Source of the DNA: Chiloscyllium plagiosum
Lineage: Eukaryota
Length of the DNA stretch: 64,000 bases
Assembly: GCF_004010195.1 (NCBI RefSeq)
Contig: NC_057750.1
Location: forward strand, 3,773,450 to 3,837,449
Direction of reading: 5' to 3'
The position numbers and the translations under genes are program-made. Positions 4,223 through 63,352 of the stretch are shown one piece after another. Each line of letters opens with the position of its first letter. Positions within the stretch are counted from its first letter, which is position 1. The notes beneath the pieces are model-generated. The model did no database searches, was not told the origin of the DNA, and saw only the letters and a list, made by a program, of their open reading frames with translations.

Positions 4223-4257
4223 AGTCCTGAAGAAGGGTTACACCCGAAATATTGACC
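4223..4257 (+). ncRNA. Minimal hammerhead ribozyme motif (family B), partly decayed
   Basis: aGUC-CUGAAGA-A-GGGU uac ACCC-GAAA-UAUU-GACc. Confidence 0.5.
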
Positions 4258-11300: not shown

Positions 11301-14300
11301 AAGACCTTGGCTTAACATCTCATCCAAAAAATATTGCTGCATTCCCCCAGTACTGCCCTGGGAGTGACAGTCTCTGAAAATTGGTGTGATCAATTCTTGA
11401 TCCTTGAGTTGGTACAGCTCCAAATTCTCTCTGATCATAGCTTAGATTTAGGATGACTATTGCTATAATCCTGATTGATGTTCCTCAATTCAAATGGCCA
11501 GGATTTGCAAATTTGCAGTGATCTCCTTTGCTAAAACTCAACTGGCAATAATGATATGGCCAAGGTGGTAGCCAAACATTTATCTTCTAAATTTCACAGT
11601 GCATTAGCGCTCTGCCAGGTGGTGCTTTTCCTATTTCTCCAGGCTTACCAAATATTCCTTTTGCTTTGTAGATTGAAAAGCCCAGAGCTTTCAGGTGTGG
11701 GACATTTGGAGCCACCAGTCTACAGCAGAGGCACCTGGCAACAGGAGACTTTGAAGGCAATCTTCACATCTGGTAATAAGTTGGTTTGTTGAGTTGTTTA
11801 AAAAATGGAATTAATTGCTTAATAAAAGACTTCAAAATTGAAAGCCCTTCTTTCAATTCAAAAGCTGGCATAAAATCTAGTCTTACTAAATCCTAGAATG
11901 GTTGCAGAATGGAAGAAGGCCATTCTGTCCACTTTGTGCTGGTTTGTTGAAGGAGTAATTGAGCAAAGGACTATTCCAGATCCTAATCATTCGCTACACA
12001 GAAAATGTTTTTCTTTATTTCGCTGCTTATTTTGCCAATACCTTATATCTGTGCCTTCTGGGTCTTGATCCTTTCACCAATGAGAAGAGATTCACTCTGT
12101 CCATACCTGTCATTGTTTTGAATACCTCAAGTCTCCAATCATACTTCCCTTCCAGAGAGAACTGTCCCAATTGCTCCGTTCCATTTGTTTAATCTTTTCT
12201 ACGTAAAGCACTCATTCTGAGGACGATGGTTCCATGAACCAGATAGGATAAAGCCTATCTCTAGTACTGCACCAAGTGGCCATTTTATTTCTCTGAGTTT
12301 AGTGTTGGCTGATCAATTGTAAAGAACACAACAGCTTAATCTTGCCCTCTGACTACCTCACTTTGATAGGCCCACAAGAGAATATTCAGGAGCAGGAGCC
12401 ATTGCCTTTCCTAACTAAGCTTCCTGCCATCACAGTGACAGTCAATAAACTTTATACAACTAGGATAGTTATACCTGGATAGGACAGTTCAATGGATTAA
12501 AATATAAATACACAAGTTAGGACAGACAGATCAGGGGCAGAAGTAGGTCATTTGGACACTCAAATCTACCATTGTTCAGAGGATTTAAAAGATTCTTTCA
12601 TAGGATGTAATCATCATTGGATTTGTTGCCCATCCCTGACTGCCTTTGAGAAAGTGATGAGGTAAAAACAATGACTGCAGATGCTGGAAACCAGATTCTG
12701 GATCAGTGGTGCTGGAAGAGCACAGCAATTCAGGCAGCATCCGAGGACAGGCAAAATCGACGTTTCGGGCAAAAGCCCTCCTGATGAAGGGCTTTTGCCC
12801 GAAACGTCGATTTTGCCTGTCCTCGGATGCTGCCTGAATTGCTGTGCTCTTCCAGCACCACTGATCCAGAATTTGAGAAAGTGATGATGAGCTACCTTCT
12901 TGGCTGCAGTCTCTATGGTGTGGGTGCACCTATTGTACAGAGGTTTGGTACAACTGAGCTATGCCATTTCAGAGGACAGTTAAAAGCCAACCACAATACT
13001 CTGGGTCTGGTGTCATGTAGATCTGGCCAGGTAAGGACGGTAAAGTCCTTCCCTAAAGGGCATTAGTGAACAAGTTGAGTTTTTATGACAATCAGAAATA
13101 GCTTCATGATCATGATAAAAATCAATTTTCAATTCCAGTGTTGTAAAGAATCTGGATTTCACCAGCTGTCACATTGAAATTTGAAACAATGGAATGTCCC
13201 CAGAGCATTTGCCTTAATTAATTAACAGAGACACCTCTCTACCTTTTCCCTGACCTTCCTAAATGTCTTCTACCTTTCAGGTTCAATCCCATGTCTTCCT
13301 GCAGCCATGTCTCTGTAATGGCTACCAGAGTGGATTTATTTATTTATTTCTGTTTGTGCTCTTAGTTCATATGTTTTGCTTTGAATGCCTCACATATTCA
13401 AATGCAATGCCTTTACATTTACACCTTTATTCTTGATTCATATTATCTATCTCTTTCTGTCACAATCTGTTTATCATTTCTCATCATAATATCTTTCTCT
13501 TTGGCTTTCACTCTACTCTTTGATTTACCACAAGTGCCCTACATTTGATCACTTGGTTCACTATTCCCAGATGTGTAGTTAGCAAGAACACCAGCCCATG
13601 TACAGTTCAAATGGAGATCATTCCATCAGTACAGATCCCACTCCCCCTCCAGTAATTTAATGATCCAAAGATAGTGACCCTGTTCTGCTTCTTTAATGTG
13701 GCACCTGGCTCTTCTTACTGACAATACAGAACCTCCTGCTTTGACTTACCCATGATATTGGTACTTACATAGACCATGACAACAGAATCCTCCCCCTCCC
13801 ACTGTAGGTTCTTCTCCAGCCCTGAACAGCTATCCTGAACTATAGTACCCAACAGCAGCAAAGTTGTCTGGACTTGCACTCTTTGCTGGAGGACAATATC
13901 AATCTTCCTCACTGCACTGACCCCTAACACCACTAATATTCCTTTCTCCTTATCCGTTTTCCTTTACCACAGTGTGATGTTCAGTAGGCCCATCTATCCT
14001 ATGGCCCTCACCCTTAACCAAATAAGCTGAAATAATCTCAAACCTGTTGGACAATTGCAAATGCTGCCCTCTGAGTCCCCTTACCCACTTCACCCACAGT
14101 GACACCCTCCTGTCCTTGAATACTGACCAAATGAGACCAATCTTGAGAGGTATGACTGCCTCCTCACACATAAAATTTATCAAAATTCCCCTCTCCCTCA
14201 CGTGTCACTGTGTTTGTAGATGAATGTCCAGCTTATATGTCCAGTTTGAACTGCTTGATCTTCAAACATTTCCTGCAGATGTGTTTGCTTTGGACCAAAC

Positions 14301-17300
14301 TGGCATCCAGGACACATCGCCTGTCCTGCCTTCCTTAAGGTGTTCTATTGTTACTTACTTATTTTATTCAACCTTGTATTTACCAATTTTTAAAAATATA
14401 CTTCCTTAACATTCACCGGTTGCTATACTATGTCGATCCTTAGGAATAGAATAAATCTTAGTCACTTACCAGATAATCAGAGTAAAAATCAATTCCTGAA
14501 TACTGACATTGGTGAAGGTAAAAGCAAGGAGCACCTCTTTTCATTGCTCTCCTTAATTTCTTTTATAATTTAACTCCAGCATTCCGTTGTAAGTCACACT
14601 CAAGTGCTTAGTTCTCATTAAGTTGGATAGTTCAATATGCAGTATCTAGGAGTCATTATTCAAAATCAGAGTCCCACTGCTTATAGAAAATGTCTTTTGT
14701 GCCCCATGAGGAGTTCCCAAAACCTTTTAGCTTGACCTGGTTGGTCTCAGAAATAAAGATTAATCACCCAGAAACCCCCCAGGAAGCAGCTGCATCAGAC
14801 AGATGTACAACAAACAGAAGATGCAGGCCCCATCTGGGATGCAATGAAATTCCAGAAAATGATGCAAGGAATAGTGCAGTTTCTGAAGGAATATGTGTGG
14901 CCACCACTGATTCAACATGAGGGTGGGCCAGATCAAACTGGGAGGTCATGTGATGTGAAATCTTAGGTTAAATCCAGATAATAACAACAACTTTATTTAT
15001 GTAGCATCTTTGTCTTAATAAGGGGGTTTCAACTCAACAGTAATAGGGACAGCTATCATTCTCTCCTGCTACATGAAAATGTGAGTATGAAAGCACCTAA
15101 AAACTCACTTGTTGTCACTCCACAGGAACTTGGAAGCATCTGAAACTCCCCTCTACTCAGCCAAAGCACATCAAGAAATCATTAACTGTATTGATGGTGT
15201 GGGTGGGCTTGAAAATGGACATGGGGCCCCAGAGATTGTCACTGGCAGCAGGGATGGTGAGTACTTCTACAAATAGTATGCACTGGAACCAGACAGGAGA
15301 TAAAGACTTTTCTTTAATGTTGCTTGAAAGGATATTGAGAGCAGATTCACAAAGAGGAATTGAAAAGGAGAAATTTGCAAGTTTGGGAATCAAGAAGGGT
15401 GTGCGACCATTTGGATAGCTCTTTTAAAGAGCTGACACAAAGCACAATGGGCTGAATGGTCTCTTGTGAATCTCTAGCATTCTATGAAATCAAGGCTTGG
15501 CACTATTCTTTATCCTAAACCTGGGATCTTAAACTATCTAAATTGCAGATTCTGAAAATCTGAAATAAAAACAGAAAGTGTTGAAAGTATTCAACAGGTC
15601 AGGCAGCAAGGATCTGTAAAAAGAGAAGAACCAAGGCAATGTTTCAGATGATTAATTTCTTGTCAAACTAGGTAGCCCTTTCACTTCCTTCTTTCTACAA
15701 ACCACGTGCATTTAAAAGAAAAAAACTACAGATGCTGGGAATATGAAATAAAACCAGAAAACTCAAAGGTTAACTTTGTGTCTCTATCCAAAGACACTGC
15801 CAGGCCTGCTGAGTTTCTCCAACATTTTCTGTTTTTATTAAGAGCTTTAAAAACCCAGATTTAAGAAACAGGGCCAAAAACTCAGCAAATCTGCCCCTTT
15901 GGGTGAAACATATCAAAAAAGGTCATGTTATTAAACAATGTAAATGAGTGCCATTGCTAATCAAAAATTTTGATCAATTAGCAGATAATGTTCCCAACTA
16001 CTTACACAACTGCATTATTTGTGATGATCTGTATCAATTTGAAATGTTCAGCAGATAGTGTCAGAGGCTCCCATACTAACACAGATTTTCCACCAAAATA
16101 TAATCCACACCTTTTCTTGAGGCTCTCCTACATTTTGACCTCGTCTTCATAGTTCCATCTTCCATAATTTGCAGCTTATTTGAAAGGCCTCAAGTTCTCA
16201 CCCATCCAGAATTCCATAGTTCCATCGCTGGGTCAATATTGATGAAATCCTATCCTTACAGTACTTTGGGTGTTCTGACACACCAAGGATGCAGTGGTTT
16301 AAGAAGGCAGTCACTACTACCTTCTCAAGGGCAATTAGTAATGGGTAATAAATGCTGGCCCAGCCACATCCCTTCAGTGATTTCTTTTTAAAAACAAGAC
16401 TCCCAGACATGAGGGTGCAATGGTTTCTTATGCCCTTTCAATTTAGTACAACCTCATTAAGAGACCAACAGTCAAACATGCACCAGTTTTAAAGTGGCAC
16501 CAGCAAAAGCAGCCTTGTTTTAGACTTTTGCTTAAGGCTAACATCACTGACAATGTAACATGCTCTGTGTATCACACCTGTATGTCTCCCTGATCCAGAA
16601 TATTCAAGTTACCACAGTATATTGTTTCAGTCCGTGTTACACTTATTCCCAGAAAAATGTGACAGAAAGAGAGTAACTAGATAGCTCTATCAAAGAATCA
16701 ACATAGGCACAATGGGCCAATTAATCACTTAGAATCATATAGTCCTACGGCACAGCAACAGGCCCTTTGACCCAAACTGGTCCATGCCAACCAAAATGTC
16801 TGGCCACACTTAACCCCATTTCCCTGCCCATATCCTTCTAATCCTTTTCTATCCAAGTATTTGTCCAAATGTCTTTTAAATGTTGTTAATGTACCTGCCT
16901 CAACTACTTCTGCTGGCAACTCATTCCATGTGCGTACCACTCTCTCTGGTTTCCTTTTATTCTTTCCTCTCTAACCTTAAACTGATGCCCTCTCGACCTT
17001 GATTCCCCAACCTTGGGAAAAAAACTGAAAAAGGCATTCACCCTATCCATGTCTCTCATGATCTTATACACCTGTATAAGGTCCCCCTCAGTCTCCTAAG
17101 CTCTCAAGAAAAATGTCCTAGCTTATCCAACCTCTCCCTATAACTCAGACCATTGAGTCCAGGCAACATCCTTGTAAATCTCTTCTGCACTCTTTACAAT
17201 TTAATAACATCTTTCCTATAGCAAGGTGACAAAACTGAACACAATACTCCAAGTGTGGCCACACCAATGTCCTATACAATTGCAACATAACTTTCCAACC

Positions 17301-20300
17301 TCTATACTCAATACCCTGACTGATGAAGGCCAGTGTGCCAAAAGCCTTCTTCACAGCCCTGTCTACCAGGGACTCCACTTTCAGAGAACTGTGCACCTGA
17401 ACTCCAAGATCCCTCTGTGGCACTACACTCCTTAAGGCCCTACCATCCACCATGAAACTCTTACCATGACTTGATTTTCCAAAGTGCAAGACCTCACACT
17501 TATCTATATTAAACTCCATCTGCCATTTCTCAGCCCACTTCCCCAGCTGATCAAGGTCCTGCTGCAATTTCTGATAACCTTCCTCACTGTCCACGATACA
17601 ACCTATTTTAGTGTCATCAGCAAACTTACTAATTATGCCTTGTGCATTCTCATCCGAATCATTGATATAGATAACGAACAGTAATGGGCCCAGCATCGAC
17701 CCCTGAGGCACTCCACTAATCGCAGTCCTCCAGTCCGACAAGCATCCTTCCACTATTACCCTGTATTTCCTACTGGCAAGTCAATTATGTATCCAATTCA
17801 CCAGCTCACTCTGGATTCCATGCCATCTAACCTTCCAGCGCAGCCTACCTTATGGAACTTCATCAAAGGCCTTACTGAAATCCATATAGACTACATCTAC
17901 CACCCTGGCCTTGTCAACCTTTCTGGTCACTTAATCAAAGAACTGTAACAAATTTGTGGGGCATGATCTCCCACTCACAAAACCATTCTAACTACTCCTA
18001 ATCAAACCCTGTTTTTCCAAATGCATGTATATCTTATCCCTCAGAATCTTCTCAAGTAACTTACCTACCACAGATGTTAAACTTACTGGTCTATAGTTCT
18101 CAGGTTTTTCTTTGCAACCCTTCTTGAATAATGGCACAACATTCACTACCCTCCAATCTTCCGGGACCTCACCCTTGGCTAATGATGATGCAAAAATGTC
18201 AGCCAGGGCCCCCGCAATTTCTTCTCCAGCCTCTTGCAGTGTTCTTGAATATATCTGGTCAGGATCAGGAAATTTATCCACCTTCAATCATTCTAATACT
18301 TCTAACACCTCCTCTACTGTGATATGAACCCAAGATATCACCACTAACTTCCCCAAGTCTTCATATCTTTCTCCATGGTAAACACAAAGGAGAAATATTC
18401 ATTAAGAACCTCACCCATCTCCTACGGTTCCAAACATTCATGTCCACTTTGGTCCTTGAGGGGTCCTATTCCCTCTAGTTAATCTTTTTCTTTTAATAAA
18501 TTTAAAGTGCCTCTTTGGATGCACCCTAATCTTATCAGCCAAGGCTATCTCATGCCCCCTTTTCGCCCTCCTGATTTCTTTCTTCAGTAAACTTTGTGAG
18601 ATTCTGTAACTTTCTGTAGTTATCACCAGAACATATCTGGTATTTTACTTTGAATGAATGAATAGTGCTCTTGCCAAACTTCCAGTCCCATTATTATTAA
18701 ACATGTAAAAATATTAGGCATTTTGATGGATGGGAATGTATTTATGGTCACAGTATCCTCAAGATACAGAATTAGAATCAGAGCGAGATAAGGAGAAAGT
18801 TTTTTTTTGTGCTGAGTTGTTGTGATCTGGAATTCTCTGCTGAAAAGAGCAATGGAACAAGATTCAATCATAGAGTCATAGAGATGTACAGAACGGAAAC
18901 AGACCCTTCAGTCCAACACATCTATGGCGACCAAATATCCTAATCTCAAGAAAAAACCACGACAAGCAGACCAAACACAGCCAGAAACCCTATCCACCTT
19001 ACCATACATAAAAGAAGTTTCAGAAATGACAGCCAGACTACTAAGACCCCTCGGAATCCTAGTAGCACACAAACTCACCAACACTCTCAAACAAAAACTA
19101 ACAAACTTAAAAGACCCAGTACAACCCATGGACAAAACCAACGTCATCTACAAAATTCCATGCAAGGAGAAAATGAACAGGAAATGACATCACCACAAAC
19201 CCCAGGAACCCTATCCAGGACAAACCTATAAATAGAAAACAGGAGACAGTTTCGCTTCACTTGGAGGTCGCCACTGATGATGTTACCTAGCCAGGTAATG
19301 AAACATCTGGATATCAAACCTACAGCTCAGCGAGCAAACTTACACCCTATATCCAAATCTAATCTAGTCCCATTTGCCAGCACTTGACCCTCTAAACCAT
19401 TCCTATTAGATTAGATTCCCTACAGTGTGGAAACAAACCCTTCAGCACAACAATTCCACACTGACCCTCTGAAGAATAACCCACCCAGACCCATTCCTCT
19501 ACATTTACCCCTGACTAATGCACCTAATATACACATCCCTGAACACTACAGGCAATTTAGCATGGCCAATTCACCTGACCTGCACATCTTTGGATTGTGG
19601 GAGGAAACCGAAGCACCCGGAGGAAACCCACACAGACACTGGGGGAATATGCAAACTCCACACAGTCACCCGAGGTTGGAATTGAACCCGTGCTGCCCCT
19701 ATTCATATACCCATCCAGGTGTCTTTTAAATGCTGTAATTGTACCAGCCTCCACCACTTTCTCTGGCAGCTTATCCCCTACATGCACCACCCTCTGTGTG
19801 AAAAAGTTGTCCCTTCGGTCCATTTAAAATTTTCCCCTCTCACTCTAAACTTATGCCCTCTAGTTCTGGACTCCCTCACCCCAGGAAAAAGATCGTCTAT
19901 TTATTCTTTCCATGCCCCTCATGATTTTATAAACTGATATAAAGTCGCCCCTCATCCTCCAACGCTCCAGGGAAAACATCCCCAGCCTATTCAGCCTCTC
20001 CCTATAGCTCAAACCCTCCAACCCTGGCAACATCCTTGTAAATCCTTTCTGAACCTTTTCAAGTTTAACAACATCCTTCCGAAAGGAAGGAGACCAGAAT
20101 AGCACGCAGTATTCCAAACGTGGCCTAACCAATGTCCTGTACAGGCGCAAGTGAGGACTGCAAATGCTGGAGATTAGAGTCGAGAGTGTGGTGCTGGAAA
20201 AAACACAGCAGGTCAGGCAGCATCCGAGGAACAGGAAAATTGACATTTCGAGCAAAAGCCCTTCAAAGTAAAAGCATCAATATCCTGTACAACCTTACCA

Positions 20301-46213: not shown

Positions 46214-47787
46214 TTTGTAATGATTTTATACAGCCTGAAAGAATATTGTAATAATGTTGCACTGTTAAAACCAGAATCTCAGACTTGCTGTAAAAGCTTA
46301 CCAGTTACAAGTAAGGCAGTATATGACCACTAGCTGAAAGAGACACTACAGTTCAATAGATGAAGTGCAAATAACTTGTAATCAACTCAAGGTCAGGTTG
46401 GCAACTTGCCCAATTGCAATTCCACAGTACTTAACAGAGAACATAGAGCAAACCTCAACTGCTCCATCTTTATTATGTTAAGTAGAAATTCATATAAACA
46501 GACCTGCACATTGAATAACTACAATTAAAATTTACTAATCTTCAGACGACAAGCTGTTAACCTAAAGGAATTGCCAGCACTAAAGTTAGAGAAAGCAAGG
46601 CAGCATATTCACACAAGGAGGATCTTGAGAAGTTGGAAACAATTAGCGACTGCTCTGGATGCCAGATTACACATAAGCAAAACAATGAAAGATTGGTCAG
46701 TTATTGAGCGTAAACACTAACGTATGTTCTAGGCACTGAACTGGTTCAGTGATTTGAATTATAAATCAAGGATCATTATTTCCTTGTTGCAGCTTTCAAA
46801 CCATTATCAAATTCAACATCTGACCCCATAAACTGCATACATTAGTTAAGCAAAGTTTAACTCCTATTGCAAACATCTAATGTGATTAAGAGGTAGCCTC
46901 ATAGCATATCAACCTTCAGACTCCACTTTTTAAAAAAAATACTTGCAGCTGGTAGGGATTTTAAAATGGTATTTGCATATTGACTTTGCAACCTTTAGCA
47001 CAAAGTGCACACTCTGTTGTACCTTGGCGTCCATCTTGCTTCAAGACGTTAAAAGCGACATTAATATACAACGCCAGCTTTTCCAGGCTTCCCAAGGTAA
47101 GGAACGTACAAGTTAAATTATAAACACGCCTTCTAAAGAACTTCGAGATAATGCTTCAATAGTTTGAGGCGGAAAATTCTGTAATTCTAAATCACTACCA
47201 ACATCTGCATTTCTCCTTGTATGCGATATTTAAAAAATTCTACTGCCCCATTAATCTTGTGATTATCTGACATTTGTATCATCTTGTTATCTCTGCTACC
47301 AGCAGAAACAATTTATCGCTATTTAACTCAATAGAGAAAGCTCGCTCGTTAACAAAAAAAAACGTCTCGGTATAATGCTGAAGAATATTATTTCCAGCTA
47401 GAAAAGGTTTAGTTTGTTTTTCACATAAAATCGCGCACCAACCGAACCGAGTTTACTAAAAATACAACGACGCCATCAGTCACCAGTAACCGCGAGGGTG
47501 TTTTTTCAAAAAACAACAAGGCAGCGCCACAATCAGAATCTAAACCAGATTTGAAAAATTCGACACCGTTAATGCCCCGATTAATCAAATGCCCTGAAGA
47601 TAAAGTATTTTACATCTGATCAAGTTCTCGGTCGGTGCGGATAGGGGAAAAAAAAACGCCATGTGGGGTGGGGGGTGGGGAGCTCGTGCCGAAAGAGAAG
47701 GTTCCAGAAAGGAAAACAGTTAAATGATGAAACAGTGCAGCCAGAGGCGAATCGCCCTGCCCGCCCCTCCCCCACCACGAGGCCTAC

Positions 47788-48208
47788 CTCCAGCCGCCGC
47801 CTCTCGGCACCAACTCGAGCAGCGGCAGCGACGCCCCGGAGCCGCGCCCCGACACGACGCGAACCCACCCAACCCCCCGAAAAAAAAAAGCCAGCCGCGA
47901 CTCCCTCCGCTCACTCGCTGCCTCGCCGGGTGGTTCTCGGGATGGCTCTGCCGCCCTTCAGACTCTCGGCACTCGGTGATTTTTCTCTCTCACTCTCCTC
48001 TACCTCCTCCTCCGCCGCCGTCGACGCCGCTTCTTCTCCTCCTTCAGTCACTTGACGCCAACGTCACTGCAGTGAAACGGGGCTTCCCGTGCTCGTCTCT
48101 CGCTCTCCTCTACCTCCTCCTCCGCCGCCGTCGACGCCGCCGCTTCTTCTCCTCCTTCAGTCACTTGACGCCAACGTCACTGCAGTGAAACGGGGCTTCC
48201 CGTGCTCG
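47788..48208 (-). other. SRSF5: Candidate non-coding exon 1 (5' UTR) of the SRSF5-like gene; upstream boundary (TSS) uncertain
   Basis: Donor GAG|gtaggc at 47787 inside the CpG island; the start-codon exon has its own acceptor, so an upstream exon is required. Confidence 0.6.
47986..48208. repeat. Tandem duplication, 110 + 113 bp
   Basis: 47986-48095 and 48096-48208 differ by one substitution and one CGC indel. Confidence 0.9.
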
Positions 48209-48366
48209 GCTGCAGGGGCGGCGTTGTGACGTCAAGGATATGTTTCCCCACCTCCGCTGTCAATCACAAGCTTCACCCCGCCCCCTCCCTCGTTACTGTC
48301 GATCAACACACTGGATGTGCCAGGCCCAATCATTCCCCTCACTGCCTCAACCTAAAAACATGGAAA

Positions 48367-48466
48367 AAATAAGCACTACCGCACTTAGGTGGTAGTGTGG
48401 GGGTTAAAATAAAAAGGAAAAAAAAAAGAAAAAAAGAGAAAAAAAAGAAAAAAAAAGAAAAAAAAG
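48367..48466 (+). mobile_element. 5'-truncated poly(A) retroposon tail (L1/Tx1-type TPRT) with 13-bp TSD
   Basis: Stem-loop cactacc..ggtagtg, AATAAA at 48408-48413, about 55-nt A-rich tail; TSD aaaaacatggaaa at 48354-48366 and 48467-48479. Confidence 0.65.
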
Positions 48467-48955
48467 AAAAACATGGAAATTAGGAACAGGATAACTCCAT
48501 TCGGCCCTCGAGATTACTCTGCCATTCAGTCTGCTCATCCAACTCAAGACTGCTGCTTTATCCTCATTTTTGATCCCTTCAGCTCCAACTACTATATCCA
48601 ACTCCCTTTTGAAATCATTCAATGTTTTAGCATTGACCACTTTCTGTGGTAACAAATTCCACAGCCTCACCACTATCTGCGTGAAGACATTTCTCCTTAT
48701 CTGAGTCCAAAATGTTTTTTCTTATATCATTTGTAACTCATGGCTCTAGACTCCCCTATCATTAGAAACATCCTTCTTGCATTTAACCTGTCTGGTCCAG
48801 TTAGAATTTGGTTGGTTACCTTCACTCTTCTGAACTTCAACAAAAATAATCCTAACCGATTCAACCTTCCTTCATACTTTAGTCCTGCCAACCCAGGAAT
48901 CATTCTGGTAAACCTTCGCTGCACCCCCTCTATTGCAAGAACGTCTTTCCTGTCA
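48467..48955 (-). mobile_element. CR1-type LINE 3' fragment
   Basis: QRRFTRMIPGLAGLKYEGRLNRLGLF (48727..48924 -). Confidence 0.8.
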
Positions 48956-50746: not shown

Positions 50747-53700
50747 GTATATTGTAAAATTGTTTATATTATACTTTTTAATGTTGGTGTGATCGCTCTG
50801 GACCATGTACCTGAGTTTCTGTAAACTGTAACCAGCGTTTTGCCAAGTATGACTCTCAATTTAATAATACTGCAACACGTCCTCCTACATCTAACTTGAA
50901 AATCAAGAGACCCCTGTTGTTGTGATTATCTGTGTGCCAAATTATTTAATCTAGGTCACTGATTTCCCTGAGGAAATTTTGGGTTTATCTTTTACAGAAG
51001 ATTGTTCAGCCTTTTGCTTTTTTGCGGCTGTGTCCTGCAATGACACATTTTCTGAAAGTTACCTTTTTGTTTTACAATGAAAACATCTGGATTTTAAAGC
51101 TGGACATTATTTATGCTTGTGAGGTTTCTTTACTGCACAACATTGGCAAAGACTTTGGTGTCCTCTCTGTTGCATTGATTTACCTGCTGTGTATTTTGTC
51201 ATTTTGTACCTTAAGCTATAAATAGATTTTGCACTAAGTTTATCTTCTGCCCTGAGGATTAGGTTGTTTCACTTTAAGTCATTTGCTTCATCACCATCTG
51301 AATGGCTTTCTCTTGAGTTAAGTCTTCTTTAGACAGTCATAAGTTTGACAAAGACTCATTAGCAGGTCTGGCAAGAACTGTGGAGAGAGAGAATCAGAAT
51401 TAATGTTTCAAGTCTTACATCATTTTTGTTAGAAGAAATAAGCACAGCTATTATCAGAATTCGATTTAATTTGCTAGCTAAAACTTAAGGAGATAACTTT
51501 AAGGCTTTCTTGAGTGAAAGAGAAAAGAATTCATTGCTTGTTAACCACAAGGATAAGAAAACATGACACCAAACACACAAAAACAGGTATAAGGAATAAA
51601 AAGGGGGAAGTGTCTCACATAAAGAGGAAGATAAAAGAATATATTCTTTGAAAGTCCTTAAGGTAGTAGATTTAATCTGAGACCATGGGTAAGAAAGTAG
51701 GAGCAGGCCATTCAGCTCTTTCATTTTAGATCAACTACCTCAAAGCCATAATGTTGTGCCAATCCCACATCCTGTAATTTCATTAGTAACTGGAAATCTA
51801 TTGAGCTCTATCTTCAAGTTATGTATGGGTCTCTGAAGTAGACAATTACAAAGATTCACCACCCTTAGAATGAAAAGATTCCTCCTCATCCCATTCCTAA
51901 ATAACCCACTCCTTATTCTGAGACTGACTCTTCTTACTTTAGACCTAACAGCTATGGGAAGCAGACTTTCCACCGTTATTCTGTCTATCTATATAAGACT
52001 TTTCTTTAAACTTGTAAATATATTTGAATTCTCAGTGAATAGGTACTTCTCCAATTTATTTTTCATTGGATGTTGTCTTCTGAAATGCTGAAAGAAAAGC
52101 AGGAAGCAAGGGAGACTTCTAGTTTTGCTATTATAAATTCATTTTATATTCTCTAACTGTTAAAAAATAGTTATAGAGTCATAGAATCATACAACATAGA
52201 AACAGATCCTTCAGACCAACCAGTCCATGCTGAATATTATCTCAAACTACACTGGCCCATATTCCTGCAACCCTTTCCTATTCACATAGTTATCCAAGTT
52301 AAATGTTATAACTGTGCCTGCATCCACCACTTCCTCAGATGTTCATTCCACGTAAACCACCCTCTGTATAAAAAAAAGTCCCAAATATCTTTTTAAAATT
52401 TATCTCCTCTCACCTTAAAAATATGCACACTAGTCTTGAAATCCTCTACCCTAGGGGAATCCTATTATCTCAAGATCACCCTATCTCTACCCATCATGAT
52501 TTTATGAACTCCTATATCCAGTTGCCTGAAATAAACTTCATTTGTGTATTTCTGTGTCTGCCTTAATTGTTGCTGCATAATCTGCAAGCAACTTTCATCT
52601 CAATTATGTGAAACCTGTCCAGAAATATGGCACAGATTTGAGTTTCAATGCCTTTTTATAATAATGTCAATTTTGGTTCAGACTGATTACTGTTTATTGA
52701 TGGTTTTGTGAGCTGGCTCAATCTGTAGTCAGGTGATTATAGTAGCAGTATTAGTTCATTGGTCTTCCTTGTTTAAAATCATTTTAGTCCATCACATTTC
52801 ACACATTTTAAAAATCAAGTGCTGGAATTTGAAAATTGATAGTTCATTGTTTACTATCACAACAGTTAAGTTAGACAAGTTGTTTCTGCTCTACTATACT
52901 TGTAGAAAAGATGGGTTGTTTAGCTCAGTTGGCTGGACAGCTGGTTTGCAATGACACCAACAGCATGGGTTAAATTCCCACTGTGGCAAATAAATGCAAA
53001 AGCTATAGAGTAGTTATAATTGAGGACTTTAAATATCTTAATATACATTGTCACCATACTTTGGAAATGGTGTGAAGAGATTAGAGAAGATATTGAAAAT
53101 ACTTAAAATGGTTCTGGTGATGGCACACTTCAGAAATGAGAATTGATTAGAGAAACAAGCCCCATTAGAGACAGAAGGTTGAGAGGAGCATCAAAATAAT
53201 GAGATATCCAGAGTAGATAAGGACAAATTGTTTCCGTTAGCAGAAGGCTTGAGTACCAGAAGATACAATTCAAGGTAAATGGCAACAGATCAAATTGACA
53301 TGAGAAAAAATATTTTCTATACAGTAAATGGTTTGTACTATCTGAGACCATGGTAAGGGCAGTTTTCAAAAGAGTATCAAATAATTATTTGAAAATAAAT
53401 ATCCAATCAGGGCTACAGTGAAAAAACAAGGACATTGGATCAATTGTGGTGAACCAATGTGGACCTAGTGAACTAAATTGCTTTCCTTGGGGCTATACGT
53501 AACTATTCTATGCTTCAAATTGTCAAACTATACAAATGTTTCTCATTAAAACAAAGTAAAAATACAGTAGATGCTGGAGCTCTGAAACAATAATAAAAAA
53601 AACTAGAGAAACCTAACTGTTCTGGCAGCATCTGTGGAGAGAGAATACAGTTAATGTTTTGAGTCTAGAATTATTAAGTCTGCCACAGGCCTTGGGTGTG

Positions 53701-54170: not shown

Positions 54171-57100
54171 GTAAAACATTGAATAACAATCATCGGATGA
54201 GGAAGGTTCAGGACATTGAGGCCTTCACAGCCTGAACTTCCAAACCTGAGACTTAATCTAAAATCCAGTTTTAATTTATGAAAGAATTACCAGGTTTTTG
54301 CAAAATTATTTTCAGTCAGACTGTTGCATAAACCAATTCTTTTCTCTTCCCCCCCCCCCCCATCATCAGAATATTTAGTTTTTCACCTTGCACCCAGTAA
54401 AATGACAGTCAAATTATAATTTTTTTATTGCAATTATGAGTGTTTATATCTGCCATTAGAAATGCTAGGACTGTGATTTAGAAAGCATAGCTTAAAAATA
54501 AATCGAAGAAAATATGCAATGCTGGAAATCTAAATTTTTAAAAATGCACATGTAGCTGGATAGGATTGGAAAAGAAATGCATTATTCATTTCACAGACAG
54601 CTTTCCATCTGCATTCTGGCCTGCTCTGGTAAGGATTTTGTAAACATGAAGGGCTGAATGGCCTTCTGCTGTATTTTAAATCTCTTAAGGATATGAACAG
54701 TATAATTCATGTGAAATATTATTATTCATAGGCTCACAAACACAAGATCTGTTACAAGATGTTCCAAAAGTGAGTGATCCTTCTGCAGACATTGTCACTC
54801 AGGAGGCCAGTGCACAGGTAGAAGGGATGTCCATAATCTCTACTGAGGATCATGTCTCACCAAGTGAGGTTGAGGAACAGATCAAATCCTCTGTTCCTAC
54901 CTCGCCACAGGAGATTGATGACGCTGCCAGACTGATGAATAAGTTCCATGACGAGCAGCAGGAAGATGCTATGAATGCTTCACTGAACAGCATGTTTCAT
55001 ACGATTGCCAGTAGCAAAGCACAGATCAAAAGCCAGCAGAAGGACGAGCCTGATCTTATGTATGACCAGAAATTGGATATCATCAAGGATCTTTTCTGGT
55101 GTAAGCCAGTGGTGTTCCTCGAACGTTTTCACAAAATCATCAAAGAAGAGCACCTTGTCTGTTTCAACCATTTGGCTGAAAACTACGAAGTTACTTTTTA
55201 CAGTAATGAAATTAGGAAGTCTTCCATGAAGAAAACTGCCCGAACAAATGTTCGCAACAAGAGGTACGCGGCCCTGCAGCAGCTGATTAAAGGTGATGTC
55301 TAACATGGTATTTGGTATTTTGTTTTCACCCCACTTTTAGGAAGCTGCTGCCTTTTGCTAGTGATAGTTTTTTTTTCCCCCTTGTACTTTCCCAAAATGT
55401 TGTCACACCAGACAATGAAAAATGAAAGAGTAATTCAGCCATGAACCACATCACATCTGTTTGCAATATGCTGAAAGCAAGATTTAGTTGAAATATTGTT
55501 ACCTTTGAGCTTTTAATTTGTTTGGATCAGGGTTTTTCTTACTAGAATTAGAATCCCTACTGTGTGGAAACAGGCCTTTTGGCCCAACTAGTCCAGACCG
55601 ATTCTTTGAACAGTATCCCACCAATACCCATTCCCCTACCTTTACCCCTGACTCATGCACCTAACCTACACATCCCTGAACACTATGGAGAATTTACCAT
55701 GGCCAATTCACCAGACTTACACATCTTTGTGATTGTGGGAGGAAACCGGAGCACCCAGAGAAAACCCATGCAGACACGAGGAGAACGTGCAAACTCCACA
55801 CAGATAGTCTCCTGAGGTTGGAATTTAACCTGGGACCCTGGAGCTGTGAGGCAGCAGTGCTAACCACTGAGACATTATTGCTGCCCCCTTACTGTTCCCT
55901 TAAAGGAGTTAATTGTGTTGGTCTATCAAAATTAACTTATCCCATCCCAATTAATCAAATCTTCACTTTCCAGTAGGAAAGTCTTAATGTTGGTTTAAGC
56001 TGGATGATATATTCTTTGTCCCATTAGTAATGTGACCCAACTCCAGCTGTGGCTGTGTTCAATCAAAGTTATGAACTTGTATTTATAAAGTACCTTTAAT
56101 GCAATTAGCAGTCCAAAGGTGTTTCACAGTAGCATTATAAAGCAATGTATGACACTCAGCAATATTAGGAGATATTAAATCAAATGACCAAAAACCTTGA
56201 CAAAGAGGTGGATTTTAGGGAGTATCTTGAAGGAGTAAAGTGAGGTATTGGGCCAGAGAGTTTAGGGAGGAAATTGCAGAGCTTGAGGCCAGGAAGCTGA
56301 ACACAACATATTTTGGAAGGTAATGGGGCTGAAGGAAGTTACAGACTAGGATGGGCACAGCCATGGAGAGATTTGAGAACAAAGACAAACATTTTAAAAT
56401 TAAATCTTGTTGATGAGGTTCCAGTGTAGATCAATCAATGATGGGGAACCAGGAATTTGTGCAATTTAAGGCACAAGCTGCAAAGTTTGAATGAGCTCAA
56501 GTTAATAGAGGAGAGAATCTGGGAGGCTCATCAGGAGTCATCGAGTCTAGAAGTAACAGAAGCATGGATGAGGGCAAAGGCAGCAGATGAGCTGCGGTAG
56601 GGTGAAGTCAAATGATGTTGCAGCGGAGAAAAAAATGTGGTCTTGGTTACAGCACAAATATAAGGCCAGGAGCTCCCTGATGGTTTGTGTAAAGCAGCAA
56701 ACGTTCCATATGATTAAGTATGGGCACTGACCCCACTCTTGCCCTTTCATGGTGCATATTGCTGGCATATTTCCCACAACTGGATGACCTGGTTTTGTGC
56801 CAGTGACATAATCCATGGAATCATAAAATCTCAACAGTGTGGAAACAGACCCTTCGGCCCAACAAGTCCACCCTGACCCTCCGAAGAGTAACCCACCCAG
56901 ACCCATTCTCCTACCCGATTACTTTACATTTACCCCTGACTAATTCACCTAACATACACATTGGGCAATTTGGCATGCCCAAATGTACCTAACCTGCACA
57001 TCTTTGGATTGTGGGAGGAAACCAGAGAACCTGGAGGAAACCCACGCAGACTTAGAGAATGTGCAAACTCCACACAGACAGTCGCCCAGGGCTGGAATCC

Positions 57101-60100
57101 GAACCCAGGTCCCTGGCGCTGGGAGGCAGCAGTGCTAACCACCATGCCACCAGGTCTTACTTCAAAAATCCTTTCAAAGAAATGTGAAGCCAAAGTGAAA
57201 TGTAACAGATAAAATTATCAAAGGTATTCAAGATACACAAATCTTCAGCTTGACCCATACATTTGCAACAGTATGTATCATGTGAATTTAATTTTTTTTT
57301 GGTTTTATACTTTCAAGTAAAGAACAAGTTCTGATGAAAAGATCCTAGGCCTGAAATGTTAACTCTTTCTCTTTCCATAGATATTGTCAATCCTGCTGGT
57401 GTTTCCACTATTTTCTGTTTTATTTCAGATTTTCAACATCCCCAGTATTCTGTTTTTGTGTTAATCTGTAAATAGTGCCATTGTTCAGAAGCTTGTTTTG
57501 TGTTTTTGTCGAGCATTAACATAGAGCACTGCCTGCTCCCTCTAATCCGTCTCATCAATATTTCTCACTCGAGCTTTTTGAGTGAGCTTGCTAGTTTTGT
57601 ATCAAACAATTGTAAGTTTTATTGTTGTAGGTTTGTATCCAGTAAAAACAGAGATTAAATTCCTTCTTTGTATTGACACCCTTGTTGTTAACAGAAAAAG
57701 GAAGAAATTTATCTCGTTCTGTGGGCTGGAATCAAAACTAAATGTCGAATGTGAGCACATGACGTTGTAGCTTCTTGTTTTATGTTGGCTCCTGTTTCAT
57801 GGTGATTTATAAATAATCTAATTGATTTAATCTATCCGGATAGTTCTCTTCATGCACTGTTAGAAACAGATTGTAATCCTTTCGTGTCTGACATCTCAAT
57901 TTTGATGTACTTTGTCTTTCCAATCTTGTTCTTTTAAAAAAATATATAACTTATCAGAACAGAAGAAAAAAATTAATTAATATATTCCTCCTCTCTATAT
58001 TTGTTTTATTGAATTGGCAGTGGTCTCACCCAAGAAACAAATTCACCTTTCCCAGTACTTGGTTATAACAAAAGAAGAGAAAGTGCTGGAAAATCTCAGC
58101 AAGTCTTGCAGCATCTGTAAGGAGAGAAAAGAGCTGACGTTTCGCGTCTAACTGACCCTTTGTCAAAGCTTTGACAAAGGGTCAGTTAGACTCGAAACAT
58201 CAGCTCTTTTCTCACCTTACAGGTGCTGCAAGACTTGCTGAGATTTTCCAGCATTTTCTCTTCTTTGGTTTCAGATTCCAGCATCAGCAGTAATTTGCTT
58301 TTATCTTTGGTTATAACAAGCTGCTAAAGGAAGAAATGGACAAATTTGTTTTCTTCTCTTCATAAATAACCACAGCAATTTCTTCCCACTTGCATTTTTC
58401 CTACGGTTTTAATTGCAGAACATTTCCTGCACAGAAGGGACTTGGATGGTCTGTTATGTATGCTGACTCATATAGCAGTCTAACAGTCCTGTTCCCTTGA
58501 GCTAGATAAATTCTTAAGTAACAAGTGAATCAGAGGATATTGTGGATAGGCAAGAATGTGGAGTTAAGGTCACAATCTCATTGAATGGACAGGCCTAAGG
58601 AGCTGAAGGGCTTGTTCATGCTCCTAGGTCATTTGTATCTCACCAAAACCCTGATATCTTCCTCTGTTTCAGTAACAACATGCATTAGAGAAACTAGAAG
58701 CAGACGAAGGCCATTCAACCCTTCAAGCCTGCTTCATCATTCAATATGATAATGGCTGGTGCTCAGTATCAATGCCATATTCTCTCCCCATACGCCTTGA
58801 TGCTTTTAAAATCCAAACATTTATGTATCCATTTCTTGAATATATTCACTGACTTGGCCTCCACAGCCTTCTGAGGTAGAATGTCCCAATCTTCTTTTGA
58901 GTGTAGAAGGTTTTCTCCATCTCAGTCTAAAATGGCCTATCCCATATCCTGAGACTGTAGCCTGGAAAAACATCCTTCCTGTGTCTAATTAGTCCAGCCA
59001 TGTTAGAGGTTTGTACATTCAGTCAGATCCCCTCTCATCCTTCTAAACTCTGAACATTTATGCTAACCTTGGTATCAGCCTAGTCAACCTCTTTCGCATT
59101 TCATCTATGGCAAGCATGCCCTTTCATGGGTGGGGAGACTAAACCTGCATGCAGTGCTCCCGATGCAATCTCTTCATGGCTATGGCTAACTGCAGTAAGA
59201 CATCCTGACTTTTGAACTAATTTCTCTTGCAGTGAAGGCCAATAACCATTTGCCTTCCCAGTTGCTTGTTGAATCTGCCTGTCTACTTTCATTCACTGGT
59301 GTACAAGGACATCCAGATCCCCTTGTACATCCCAATATATCACGATTTAAATAATGCTGTGCCTTTCAATTTTTCACACTGAGGTTCAGATTAGATTCCC
59401 TACAGTATGGAAACAGGCCCTTCAACCCAACCAGTCCACACCGACCCTCCAAAGAGTAACCCACCCAGACCTATTTCACTCTGACTAATGCACCTAACAC
59501 TATTGCGCAATTTAGCATGGCCAATTCACCTGACCTGCTCATCTTTGGACTGTGGGAGGAAACCAGAGCACCCGGAGGAAACCCACGCAGACGTGGGGAG
59601 AATATCTGTGTGGAGTTTGCACAGTCACCTGAGGCTGGAATCGAACCTGGGACCCTGGTGCTGTGGGCAACAGTGCTAATCACTGAGCCACCATGCCGCC
59701 AAATATCGCCTGAGGCTGGAATCACACCCAGGTCCCTGGCACTGTGAGGCACCAGTGCTAACCACTGAGCCACTTAACTTCATATAGCAATTCCTTTAAT
59801 GTCATAGATTGCTTTATTGTTCTTTACAAGGGTGATTATCAAACAAGATTTGACACTCGGCAATGCAAGGAGATACTAGGTGACCAAAAGATTTGGTCAA
59901 AGACGTAGGTTTTAAAGAGCTTTAAGGGGGAGAGAGGCAGAGGGTTTAAAGTGCTAATTCTAGAGCTTTAGAGTCTATGCAGCAGAAGGTACAACTGAGG
60001 CCAGTGAAGGAGCAATTATAATTAGGAATGTACCAGAGGGCAGAATTGGAAGAATGGAGATATCTTGAAGGGTTGTGGACCTGGAAGAAGTCTCAGCCCT

Positions 60101-63100: not shown

Positions 63101-63352
63101 CTACAGATGGGGAATATTTCAGTGATGAGCAGATGCGAACTCGAGATCCTTTGCTGTACCAGCAGTACATTAGACAGTACATGACAGAGGAGGAGCTATT
63201 GGCTGAGAACAGCAAAAACCTGAGCAATGCCATGTGTTTGTCTGACCTGTTGATGAGCACTTATCAGGAGAAAATTGTCCAGGAAAGGCTACAGTGGCAA
63301 CAGGAAAGGGAAGATGCCTGTGTGGAAGAGGAAGAGGACGATGAGGAGGAAG
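54137..63352 (+). CDS. CCDC97: CCDC97, partial (3' end beyond the window): join(54137..54170,54732..55292,63107..63352,...)
   Basis: [23 protein letters not shown] and [22 protein letters not shown] followed by an acidic tract are CCDC97 hallmarks; phase-1 junctions fit. Confidence 0.9.
54732..55292 (+). CDS. CCDC97: CCDC97 exon 2
   Basis: Acceptor ttcatag|, open frame through [13 protein letters not shown], donor G|gtgatg. Confidence 0.88.
55543..55871 (-). mobile_element. HE1/V-SINE-type SINE
   Basis: Family consensus match. Confidence 0.85.
56817..57151 (-). mobile_element. HE1/V-SINE-type SINE
   Basis: Family consensus match. Confidence 0.85.
57327..57364 (+). ncRNA. Minimal hammerhead motif (family D), partly decayed
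   Basis: AGUU-CUGAUGA-AA-AGAUC cua GGCCU-GAAA-UGUU-AACU; 4-bp stem I AGUU/AACU. Confidence 0.5.
58072..58306. mobile_element. Fold-back Penelope-type insertion (family E): about 98-bp arms with no spacer, 13-bp TSD
   Basis: Palindrome axis AAG|CTT at 58168/58169; TSD ttggttataacaa at 58059-58071 and 58307-58319. Confidence 0.8.
58132..58205. ncRNA. Back-to-back pair of variant hammerhead motifs with U3-A8 core (family E), one on each strand
   Basis: + 58167-58205: AGCU-UUGACAA-A-GGGUC aguua GACUC-GAAA-C-AUC-AGCU; - 58170-58132: AGCU-UUGACAA-A-GGGUC aguua GACGC-GAAA-C-GUC-AGCU. Confidence 0.6.
58690..59370 (-). mobile_element. Degraded CR1-type LINE 3' fragment
   Basis: [15 protein letters not shown] remnant (59101..59292 -) and CR1 3' UTR motifs. 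Confidence 0.65.
59387..59773 (-). mobile_element. HE1/V-SINE-type SINE with duplicated tRNA head and an 18-bp micro-inversion
   Basis: Two heads (59625-59700, 59707-59773); 59605-59622 is inverted relative to other copies. Confidence 0.8.
60500..61900 (-). mobile_element. Highly degraded CR1-type LINE ORF2 fragments
   Basis: [12 protein letters not shown] (endonuclease region, 61504..61761 -); NYRPVS-like and DFQKAFD-like remnants. Confidence 0.6.
62075..62365 (-). mobile_element. HE1/V-SINE-type SINE
   Basis: Family consensus match. Confidence 0.85.
62555..62850 (-). mobile_element. CR1-type LINE 3' end
   Basis: [20 protein letters not shown] remnant. Confidence 0.7.
63107..63352 (+). 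CDS. CCDC97: CCDC97 exon 3 ([11 protein letters not shown]...EEEEDDEEE)
   Basis: Acceptor tctttccctacag|, donor G|gtacgt. Confidence 0.9.

Follow-up and report, generated by a model that had tools for sequence, protein, structure and literature searches.

The palindrome at positions 58072-58304 of the window (the whole 64,000-nucleotide stretch of the Chiloscyllium plagiosum genome analyzed here) derives from the end of an endonuclease-bearing Penelope-like element (PLE) and lacks an ORF. Our main reading, to which we assign a probability of roughly 0.8, is that this end-repeat insertion carries in both arms a U3-A8 hammerhead motif inherited from one founder, in which it was likely a weak, dimer-dependent ribozyme, and that the copy at 58 kb is itself likely inert. 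The identification as a PLE rests on longer copies of the same family, in which the end repeat is joined to reverse transcriptase (RT) and GIY-YIG coding sequence; counting against our reading, the Pfam matches to RT and endonuclease fall below the curated cut-offs.

The insertion is approximately 233 bases long and is flanked by 13-base target duplications at 58059-58071 and 58307-58319, which are direct repeats on the plus strand and 100% identical. Its arms match each other as an inverted repeat (58067-58168 and 58169-58270, 102 nt each) with 94% complementarity and a spacer of 0 nt, meeting head-to-head at AGCT (58167-58170) with the inversion axis at AG|CT. The inverted, tail-less arm of the pseudo-LTR end spans 58072-58168 on the minus strand, from about family position +97 back to the axis. 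The direct arm (58169-58270, plus strand) is followed by a tail of about 35 bases (58271-58304, plus strand), which is the fixed 3′ end of family copies and is present on one side of the insertion only. The preliminary description had read the AGCU at the axis as a stem I shared by both arms, and the arms and zero spacer bear this out: the tetramer supplies the 5′ strand of stem I for each. It is also the commonest 5′ end of family copies and a putative RNA start. The 13-bp repeat and the tail are additions to that description. The copy contains neither an ORF nor a promoter. The PLE hallmarks of a pseudo-LTR in direct or inverted form, a one-sided tail of 30-40 bp, and a target duplication are present both here and in family copies, and the palindrome is an ordinary member of its family. 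Interpretation as a MITE or DNA-transposon foldback was rejected on the grounds of the asymmetric ends created by the one-sided tail, the variable arm lengths, and the linkage of the repeat to RT/GIY-YIG sequence. At 53559-53667, on the minus strand, is an old stub from a sister PLE family that shares 70% identity with this element's tail.

A 31-place core pattern in which positions 3 and 8 were left free had 1212 exact matches genome-wide and 0 for its reversed control; thus, the core motif is not a chance occurrence. The tail pattern had 1354 exact genome matches (reversed control, 0), and a 28-base pattern across the axis had 379 strand matches, perfect ones being counted twice, from which we estimate about 200 loci. 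As a sample blind to the hammerhead, we used the first 90 of the 100 tail matches listed (1354 in all). An inverted arm adjoins 50 of these copies, 11 retain a native upstream repeat, and the other 29 are solo; both arms reach the core in 21 of the 90. Target duplications of at least 8 bp flank 40 of the 50 inverted and 12 of the 29 solo copies, and the family range is 8-16 bp.

In copies with longer 5′ ends, the sequence continues through a pyrimidine-rich repeat, which contains a TATA box, and then reaches broken RT and GIY-YIG frames. The combination of RT with a C-terminal GIY-YIG domain that characterizes endonuclease-bearing PLEs is thus found, in broken frames, in the longer family copies and not in the 58 kb copy. 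Copy L104 contains RT motifs (PF00078, E 8e-5, below the Pfam cut-off). In copy L070, a GIY-YIG domain (PF01541, E 0.004, also below the cut-off) with its CxxxCxxC linker immediately precedes the repeat; Atlas grouped this frame with GIY-YIG clusters, at 0.96. The Zn-finger-like cysteine linker between RT and endonuclease, seen in L070 and partly in L044, is of the Neptune/Nematis type, to which the family may belong. These longer broken copies (L104:829-2896 and L070:1500-2950) each lie about 2 kb from an oppositely oriented hammerhead. In intact copies, the base before the core forms a strong 3′ splice site (a pyrimidine run, then AG|CT), comparable to the description of the Drosophila virilis element, and two further acceptor-like sites follow in the arm (window 58172-58220 and the family upstream repeat).

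Each arm contains a minimal type I hammerhead motif. On the plus arm (58167-58205), the motif consists of AGCU, the core UUGACAA with U3 at 58171 and A8 at 58176, an extra A at 58178, a stem II of GGGUC and GACUC around an AGUUA loop (58179-58193), GAAA (58194-58197), C, AUC, and a closing AGCU, with cleavage predicted between 58201 and 58202. The minus arm (58170-58132) has the same letters except for GACGC and GUC in place of GACUC and AUC; its U3 and A8 are at 58166 and 58161, a G.G mismatch interrupts stem II (58145), and its predicted cut falls between 58136 and 58135. Both arms and the family carry the PLE minimal-hammerhead core, NUGANNA / GAAA / NUH with a Watson-Crick 3-8 pair. The stem I of 4-5 bp, the stem II closed by G10.1-C11.1, and the extra base after position 9 are present in the plus arm and in an intact family copy, from which the minus arm departs by its G.G mismatch. 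For the plus arm and the intact copy, fold prediction at 39 nt gives stem II pair probabilities of 0.99-1.0. An Rfam scan of the window returned no hammerhead match at E ≤ 1, only sub-threshold miRNA hairpin models, and the motif lacks a monomer stem III; by both measures it is not a canonical Rfam-type hammerhead. In the founder, two RNA copies would instead pair through the palindrome at positions 15.2-16.2 to form stem III, with U3-A8 replacing the C3-G8 core pair. This palindrome is ACGU in the family majority and is intact in the minus arm. In the plus arm, a change of G16.2 to A at 58199 (CpG decay) gives ACAU, which breaks the dimer helix.

The element sits between plus-strand exons at 54689-55300 and 63106-63348. 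The upstream exon lies in an open frame that is CCDC97-like, with no Pfam match above threshold, and its motifs suggest that it is probably CCDC97; the downstream plus-strand exon encodes a CCD97-like_C domain (Pfam PF09747, E 6e-20). A CpG-rich island at 47500-48500, upstream of these exons, is probably the promoter and first exon. The exons on either side confirm that the plus arm is in the sense orientation of CCDC97 pre-mRNA, as had been proposed. We considered whether the 58 kb copy acts as a ribozyme, functional or domesticated, in cutting or regulating this transcript, as its sense orientation in the intron might allow and as the predicted fold of the isolated plus arm, which forms stems I and II at 39-60 nt, would permit. 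For read-through RNA of either strand, however, the predicted fold is a single hairpin (about -170 kcal/mol) in which the pair probabilities of stem I and stem II are 0.0. Moreover, the dimer helix is broken, the promoter is absent, and there is no partner on the same strand: each strand carries a single motif, and the two overlap in AGCT and never occur on one RNA strand. Across family copies, core positions also decay like their flanks, with 14 of 677 non-CpG core cells differing compared to 122 of 4643 outside the core; CpG sites have lost about 20% per base. Together, these observations make a CCDC97 ribozyme very improbable. Since each arm has a damaged stem, the motif is masked in the predicted read-through hairpin, only one motif is present per strand, and the promoter is missing, the intronic copy is likely inert. 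Given this damage and the predicted masking, the sense orientation of the copy is very likely without consequence for CCDC97, and we see no sign that it is important for this gene. At the low depth of the one RNA run with family reads, no read extended into the flanks of the locus, and no RNA data set was listed as containing the flank.

The preliminary description had also pointed to a decayed UUGACAA...GAAAC motif near 15.6 kb. Such a motif is present on the minus strand (15632-15670, U3 at 15666), within an old and more distant PLE stub, although it lends no independent support: it has no stem I, its poor stem II failed the filter of our window scan, and it is about equally close to a C3-G8 family copy (score 58) and to the U3-A8 family (score 56). 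Judged by its sequence, this stub is not a member of the U3-A8 subfamily. Elsewhere in the window, another head-to-head PLE-type palindrome (12709-12858) carries a canonical CUGAUGA minimal hammerhead on the plus strand (C3 at 12781), with its axis falling within the core region and not within stem I. Further minimal-hammerhead-like motifs with CUGANGA cores occur in other repeat families at 4227, 5897 (minus strand), 19274, and 38752, the one at 19274 having a 7-bp stem II.

U3-A8 is the norm of the family. Among the 1212 core-pattern matches, 95 of the 100 listed have U3-A8, and none of these has G8; in the tail-anchored sample, U3 is found in 59 of 61 and A8 in 66 of 66 copies reaching those positions, first columns that are biased by alignment ends. 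The expectation that U3 and A8 would co-occur in a genome-wide search was therefore upheld, and neither a CUGANGA family consensus nor independent variation of the two positions was found. With a looser stem II pattern, 6441 matches were obtained genome-wide, comprising 3560 C3-G8, 2224 U3-A8, 386 C3-A8, and 271 U3-G8 cores; thus, a Watson-Crick 3-8 pair is present in 5784 of 6441. No amplified mismatched subfamily appeared among the matches listed (100 per mismatched class), and the mismatched copies sampled are mutants scattered over the parent families or junction artefacts. These class counts rest on few founder elements, and that of U3-A8 on one: because 99 of the 100 U3-A8 matches listed share a 5-nt loop type, their sequences indicate essentially one subfamily and one inherited event. 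Nor do the arms of a palindrome count separately. In 65 palindromes, the arms agree in the sub-lineage letter at +64 in 58 of 64 cases and share 17 further non-CpG changes compared to about 1 expected. As the arms share a source, the second is a copy rather than a second observation, and the 'twin' hammerheads of the preliminary description never lie on one RNA strand.

Approximately 30 C3-A8 copies among the matches listed have the 5-nt loop type of the U3-A8 subfamily, of which 20 were fetched. Sixteen are flagged as inverted, and in 15 of the 20 the C is a junction base without a stem I before it, for which reason we rejected an amplified C3-A8 intermediate. Family matches with G8 number 34 (28 with U3 and 6 with C3), 30 of which were fetched. 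An older G8 wave was likewise rejected: G8 copies are as diverged as matched A8 copies (47/1708 versus 48/1781, p 0.92), the family tree is star-like, and in 7 palindromes with a G8 arm the other arm has A8 (by eye). TG occupies positions 7-8 in 12 of the 34 G8 matches, more than would be expected had G8 been gained later at random (p 0.0004 in a rough model). The G8 copies look like sporadic mutants or junction products and do not reveal the ancestral path. One subfamily copy (L188:1400-1640, at G000:C49:7256037) combines a C3-G8 core (CUGACGA) with a native upstream repeat; it lies inside the star-like tree on a longer branch and is either a relic or a double revertant.

The double change had been taken as a signature of selection for catalysis. 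This stands insofar as U3-A8 is family-wide and the 3-8 pair is kept in most genome matches; it is weakened by the single inherited event and by the existence of a mutational route. Such a route exists because both steps are transitions, the change of G8 to A is CpG-prone (N7 is C in 64 of 65 copies), and the core lies in a near-palindrome. The pair could accordingly have arisen through biased mutation, selection for cutting being weak or absent and the ribozyme perhaps being dispensable for insertion. CpG deamination would turn G8 into A, and template switching within the near-palindrome CTTTG-A-CAAAG, which spans the core and where junctions cluster, could turn C3 into T. In addition, family copies come from uncut RNA, catalytic mutants of the Anolis element had no effect on insertion in vitro (PMC11167929), and Naiad PLEs, in the part of PMC8557442 consulted, spread without canonical hammerheads. 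We nevertheless regard mutation bias as a rather unlikely explanation. No family with an unpaired 3-8 position has been amplified among the matches listed, and U3-A8 recurs in unrelated hammerheads in the consulted portions of PMC3088659 and PMC4209133. Stem I and the 3-8 pair also covary between sister families, with 93.5% of cells paired in 14 hand-picked motifs, a figure that is illustrative only given that the rows were selected. Since the copies decay regardless of the core, selection is possible on the founder only, and we infer that U3-A8 was kept by selection there, on the strength of one event.

The 5′ ends of family copies bear on how the palindromes form. Aligned to a reference extended by 220 upstream bases, 17 of the 90 direct arms have their first base at the A of AGCT and another 12 at -2; among the 50 inverted arms, 23 begin exactly at this A. 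The spacing from TATA box to AGCT is 30-34 nt (about 32) in 10 of 11 copies. This pile-up of the 5′ ends of both arms at AGCT, some 32 bases past the TATA box, suggests that the palindromes arise from sense RNA primed twice. Inverted arms end at +91 to +105 in 45 of 50 copies, and direct arms end near +134. The hypothesis that copies are made from cleaved RNA was rejected, as there is no excess of starts at the cleavage site (+29 to +33): 0 of 90 direct arms start there (3 start at +28), 1 of 50 inverted arms starts at +31, and 73 of the 90 direct arms span the site. In 14 of 50 inverted copies, the direct arm begins at +28 or later, and in several it barely overlaps the inverted arm. By analogy, these late-starting direct arms may represent a twin-priming pattern, as in L1.

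Our tentative proposal, the simplest reading of these observations and a possibility short of even odds, is that the PLE transcript begins with the AGCU of stem I, whose self-complementarity seals two target-primed sense cDNAs into a palindrome. The founder RNA would start at or near AGCU, about 32 nt after the TATA box. The element protein would nick both target strands, and reverse transcription would be primed at two internal sites (about +136 and about +97) on uncut sense RNA. Both cDNAs would then reach the RNA 5′ end and join through the self-complementary AGCT, giving a spacer-less palindrome with a one-sided tail. If this is true, head-to-head palindromes and one-sided tails are explained without an antisense template, and cleavage by the U3-A8 ribozyme removes a 35-nt leader, leaving an AGCU end once more. 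Two features count against AGCT as an RNA start, namely that AG|CT also makes a good 3′ splice site, and that 12 of 90 copies start at -2. A cap-derived G was rejected as proof of the start: among 100 listed of 826 matches, read by eye and including some inversion junctions, the base before AGCT is C in 37, G in 26, A in 22, and T in 15. No pile-up of starts or ends was seen in 122 family reads, obtained at low depth from about 2% of the one of two RNA runs with family reads; 16 of the 122 have long loose ends before AGCT, as would be given by read-through from embedded copies.

Alternatively, the palindrome could form by self-priming, through fold-back of one cDNA or on an antisense template. 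The rotifer PLE study of 2013 (PMC3846280), in its consulted portions, held that head-to-head palindromes need an antisense template and favored self-priming on it, leaving the point open. Fold-back would produce arms that are concordant and share private changes, as observed here, since one strand is copied onto itself. A zero-loop fold-back, however, cannot pair AG with CT; the late-starting direct arms in 14 of 50 inverted copies show the pattern of twin priming; the separate, fixed end of the inverted arm (+91 to +105) is consistent with a second start site; and extension of both strands occurs in vitro (PMC11167929). We therefore consider self-priming somewhat unlikely.

The implications of these results differ for the ribozyme and for the palindrome. 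The ribozyme variant adds little, as U3-A8 is already known in nature and in PLEs; if anything here is new, it is the start-site and two-cDNA model. The family does offer a clean vertebrate case, in which a single genome contains more than 2,200 U3-A8 copies and an even larger number of C3-G8 relatives, and it is suited to a four-way cleavage test and to the study of core-pair swaps. The palindrome anatomy bears on how the head-to-head repeats and one-sided tails of PLEs form, and the family contains many junctions with which to test this. In the paper texts covered by our literature search, we found no report on this Chiloscyllium plagiosum PLE family; the supplements of PMC4209133 may list fish families.

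The novelty implied for U3-A8 in the preliminary description does not hold, as the pair is in print both for natural hammerheads and for PLE minimal hammerheads in the consulted portions of two papers. Perreault et al. 2011 (PMC3088659) describe C3-G8 covarying to U3-A8 in several natural hammerheads and cite in vitro activity of such variants. Those examples come from a general hammerhead survey, whereas the 58 kb motif is a putative hammerhead that lacks stem III as a monomer. Cervera and De la Pena 2014 (PMC4209133) report, in the part consulted, about 1,300 matches to a U3-A8 minimal-hammerhead descriptor prompted by Cercyon PLEs of Schistosoma mansoni; PLE minimal hammerheads have low activity there, and only as multimers. 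Our motifs resemble theirs in being type I, with a 4-bp stem I, an extra base between 9 and 10.1, G10.1-C11.1, a palindromic 15.2-16.2, a pseudo-LTR location, and a U3-A8 core, and in occurring mostly as dispersed truncated copies with pairs on opposite strands. As far as the consulted text goes, they differ in their vertebrate host, in a stem II of 5 bp rather than 7-8, and in overlapping at stem I rather than lying 100-700 bp apart.

Endonuclease-bearing PLEs are described, in the consulted portions of Arkhipova et al. 2013 (PMC3846280) and Craig et al. 2021 (PMC8557442), as having inverted pseudo-LTRs with a palindromic junction, a one-sided tail of 30-40 bp (also described in PMC11167929), and a short target duplication. 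The shark family shares the head-to-head repeat, the junction palindrome, the one-sided tail, the target duplication, and the TATA box in the repeat. Compared with what those portions describe, the ORF-less inverted form dominates here (50 of 90 sampled), and the junction is located at a single tetramer, which doubles as hammerhead stem I. In PAc, a Poseidon element of Anolis carolinensis (Frangieh et al. 2024, PMC11167929), cutting and extension occur on both target strands, the two internal sites at which reverse transcription begins bound the tail, and the template is mainly uncut RNA. The family studied here would be alike in its two internal start sites bounding the tail, the extension of both target strands, its uncut RNA template, and a hammerhead upstream of the tail, whereas PAc has a C3-G8 core and belongs to the Poseidon clade and our family has a U3-A8 core and a Neptune/Nematis-type cysteine linker.
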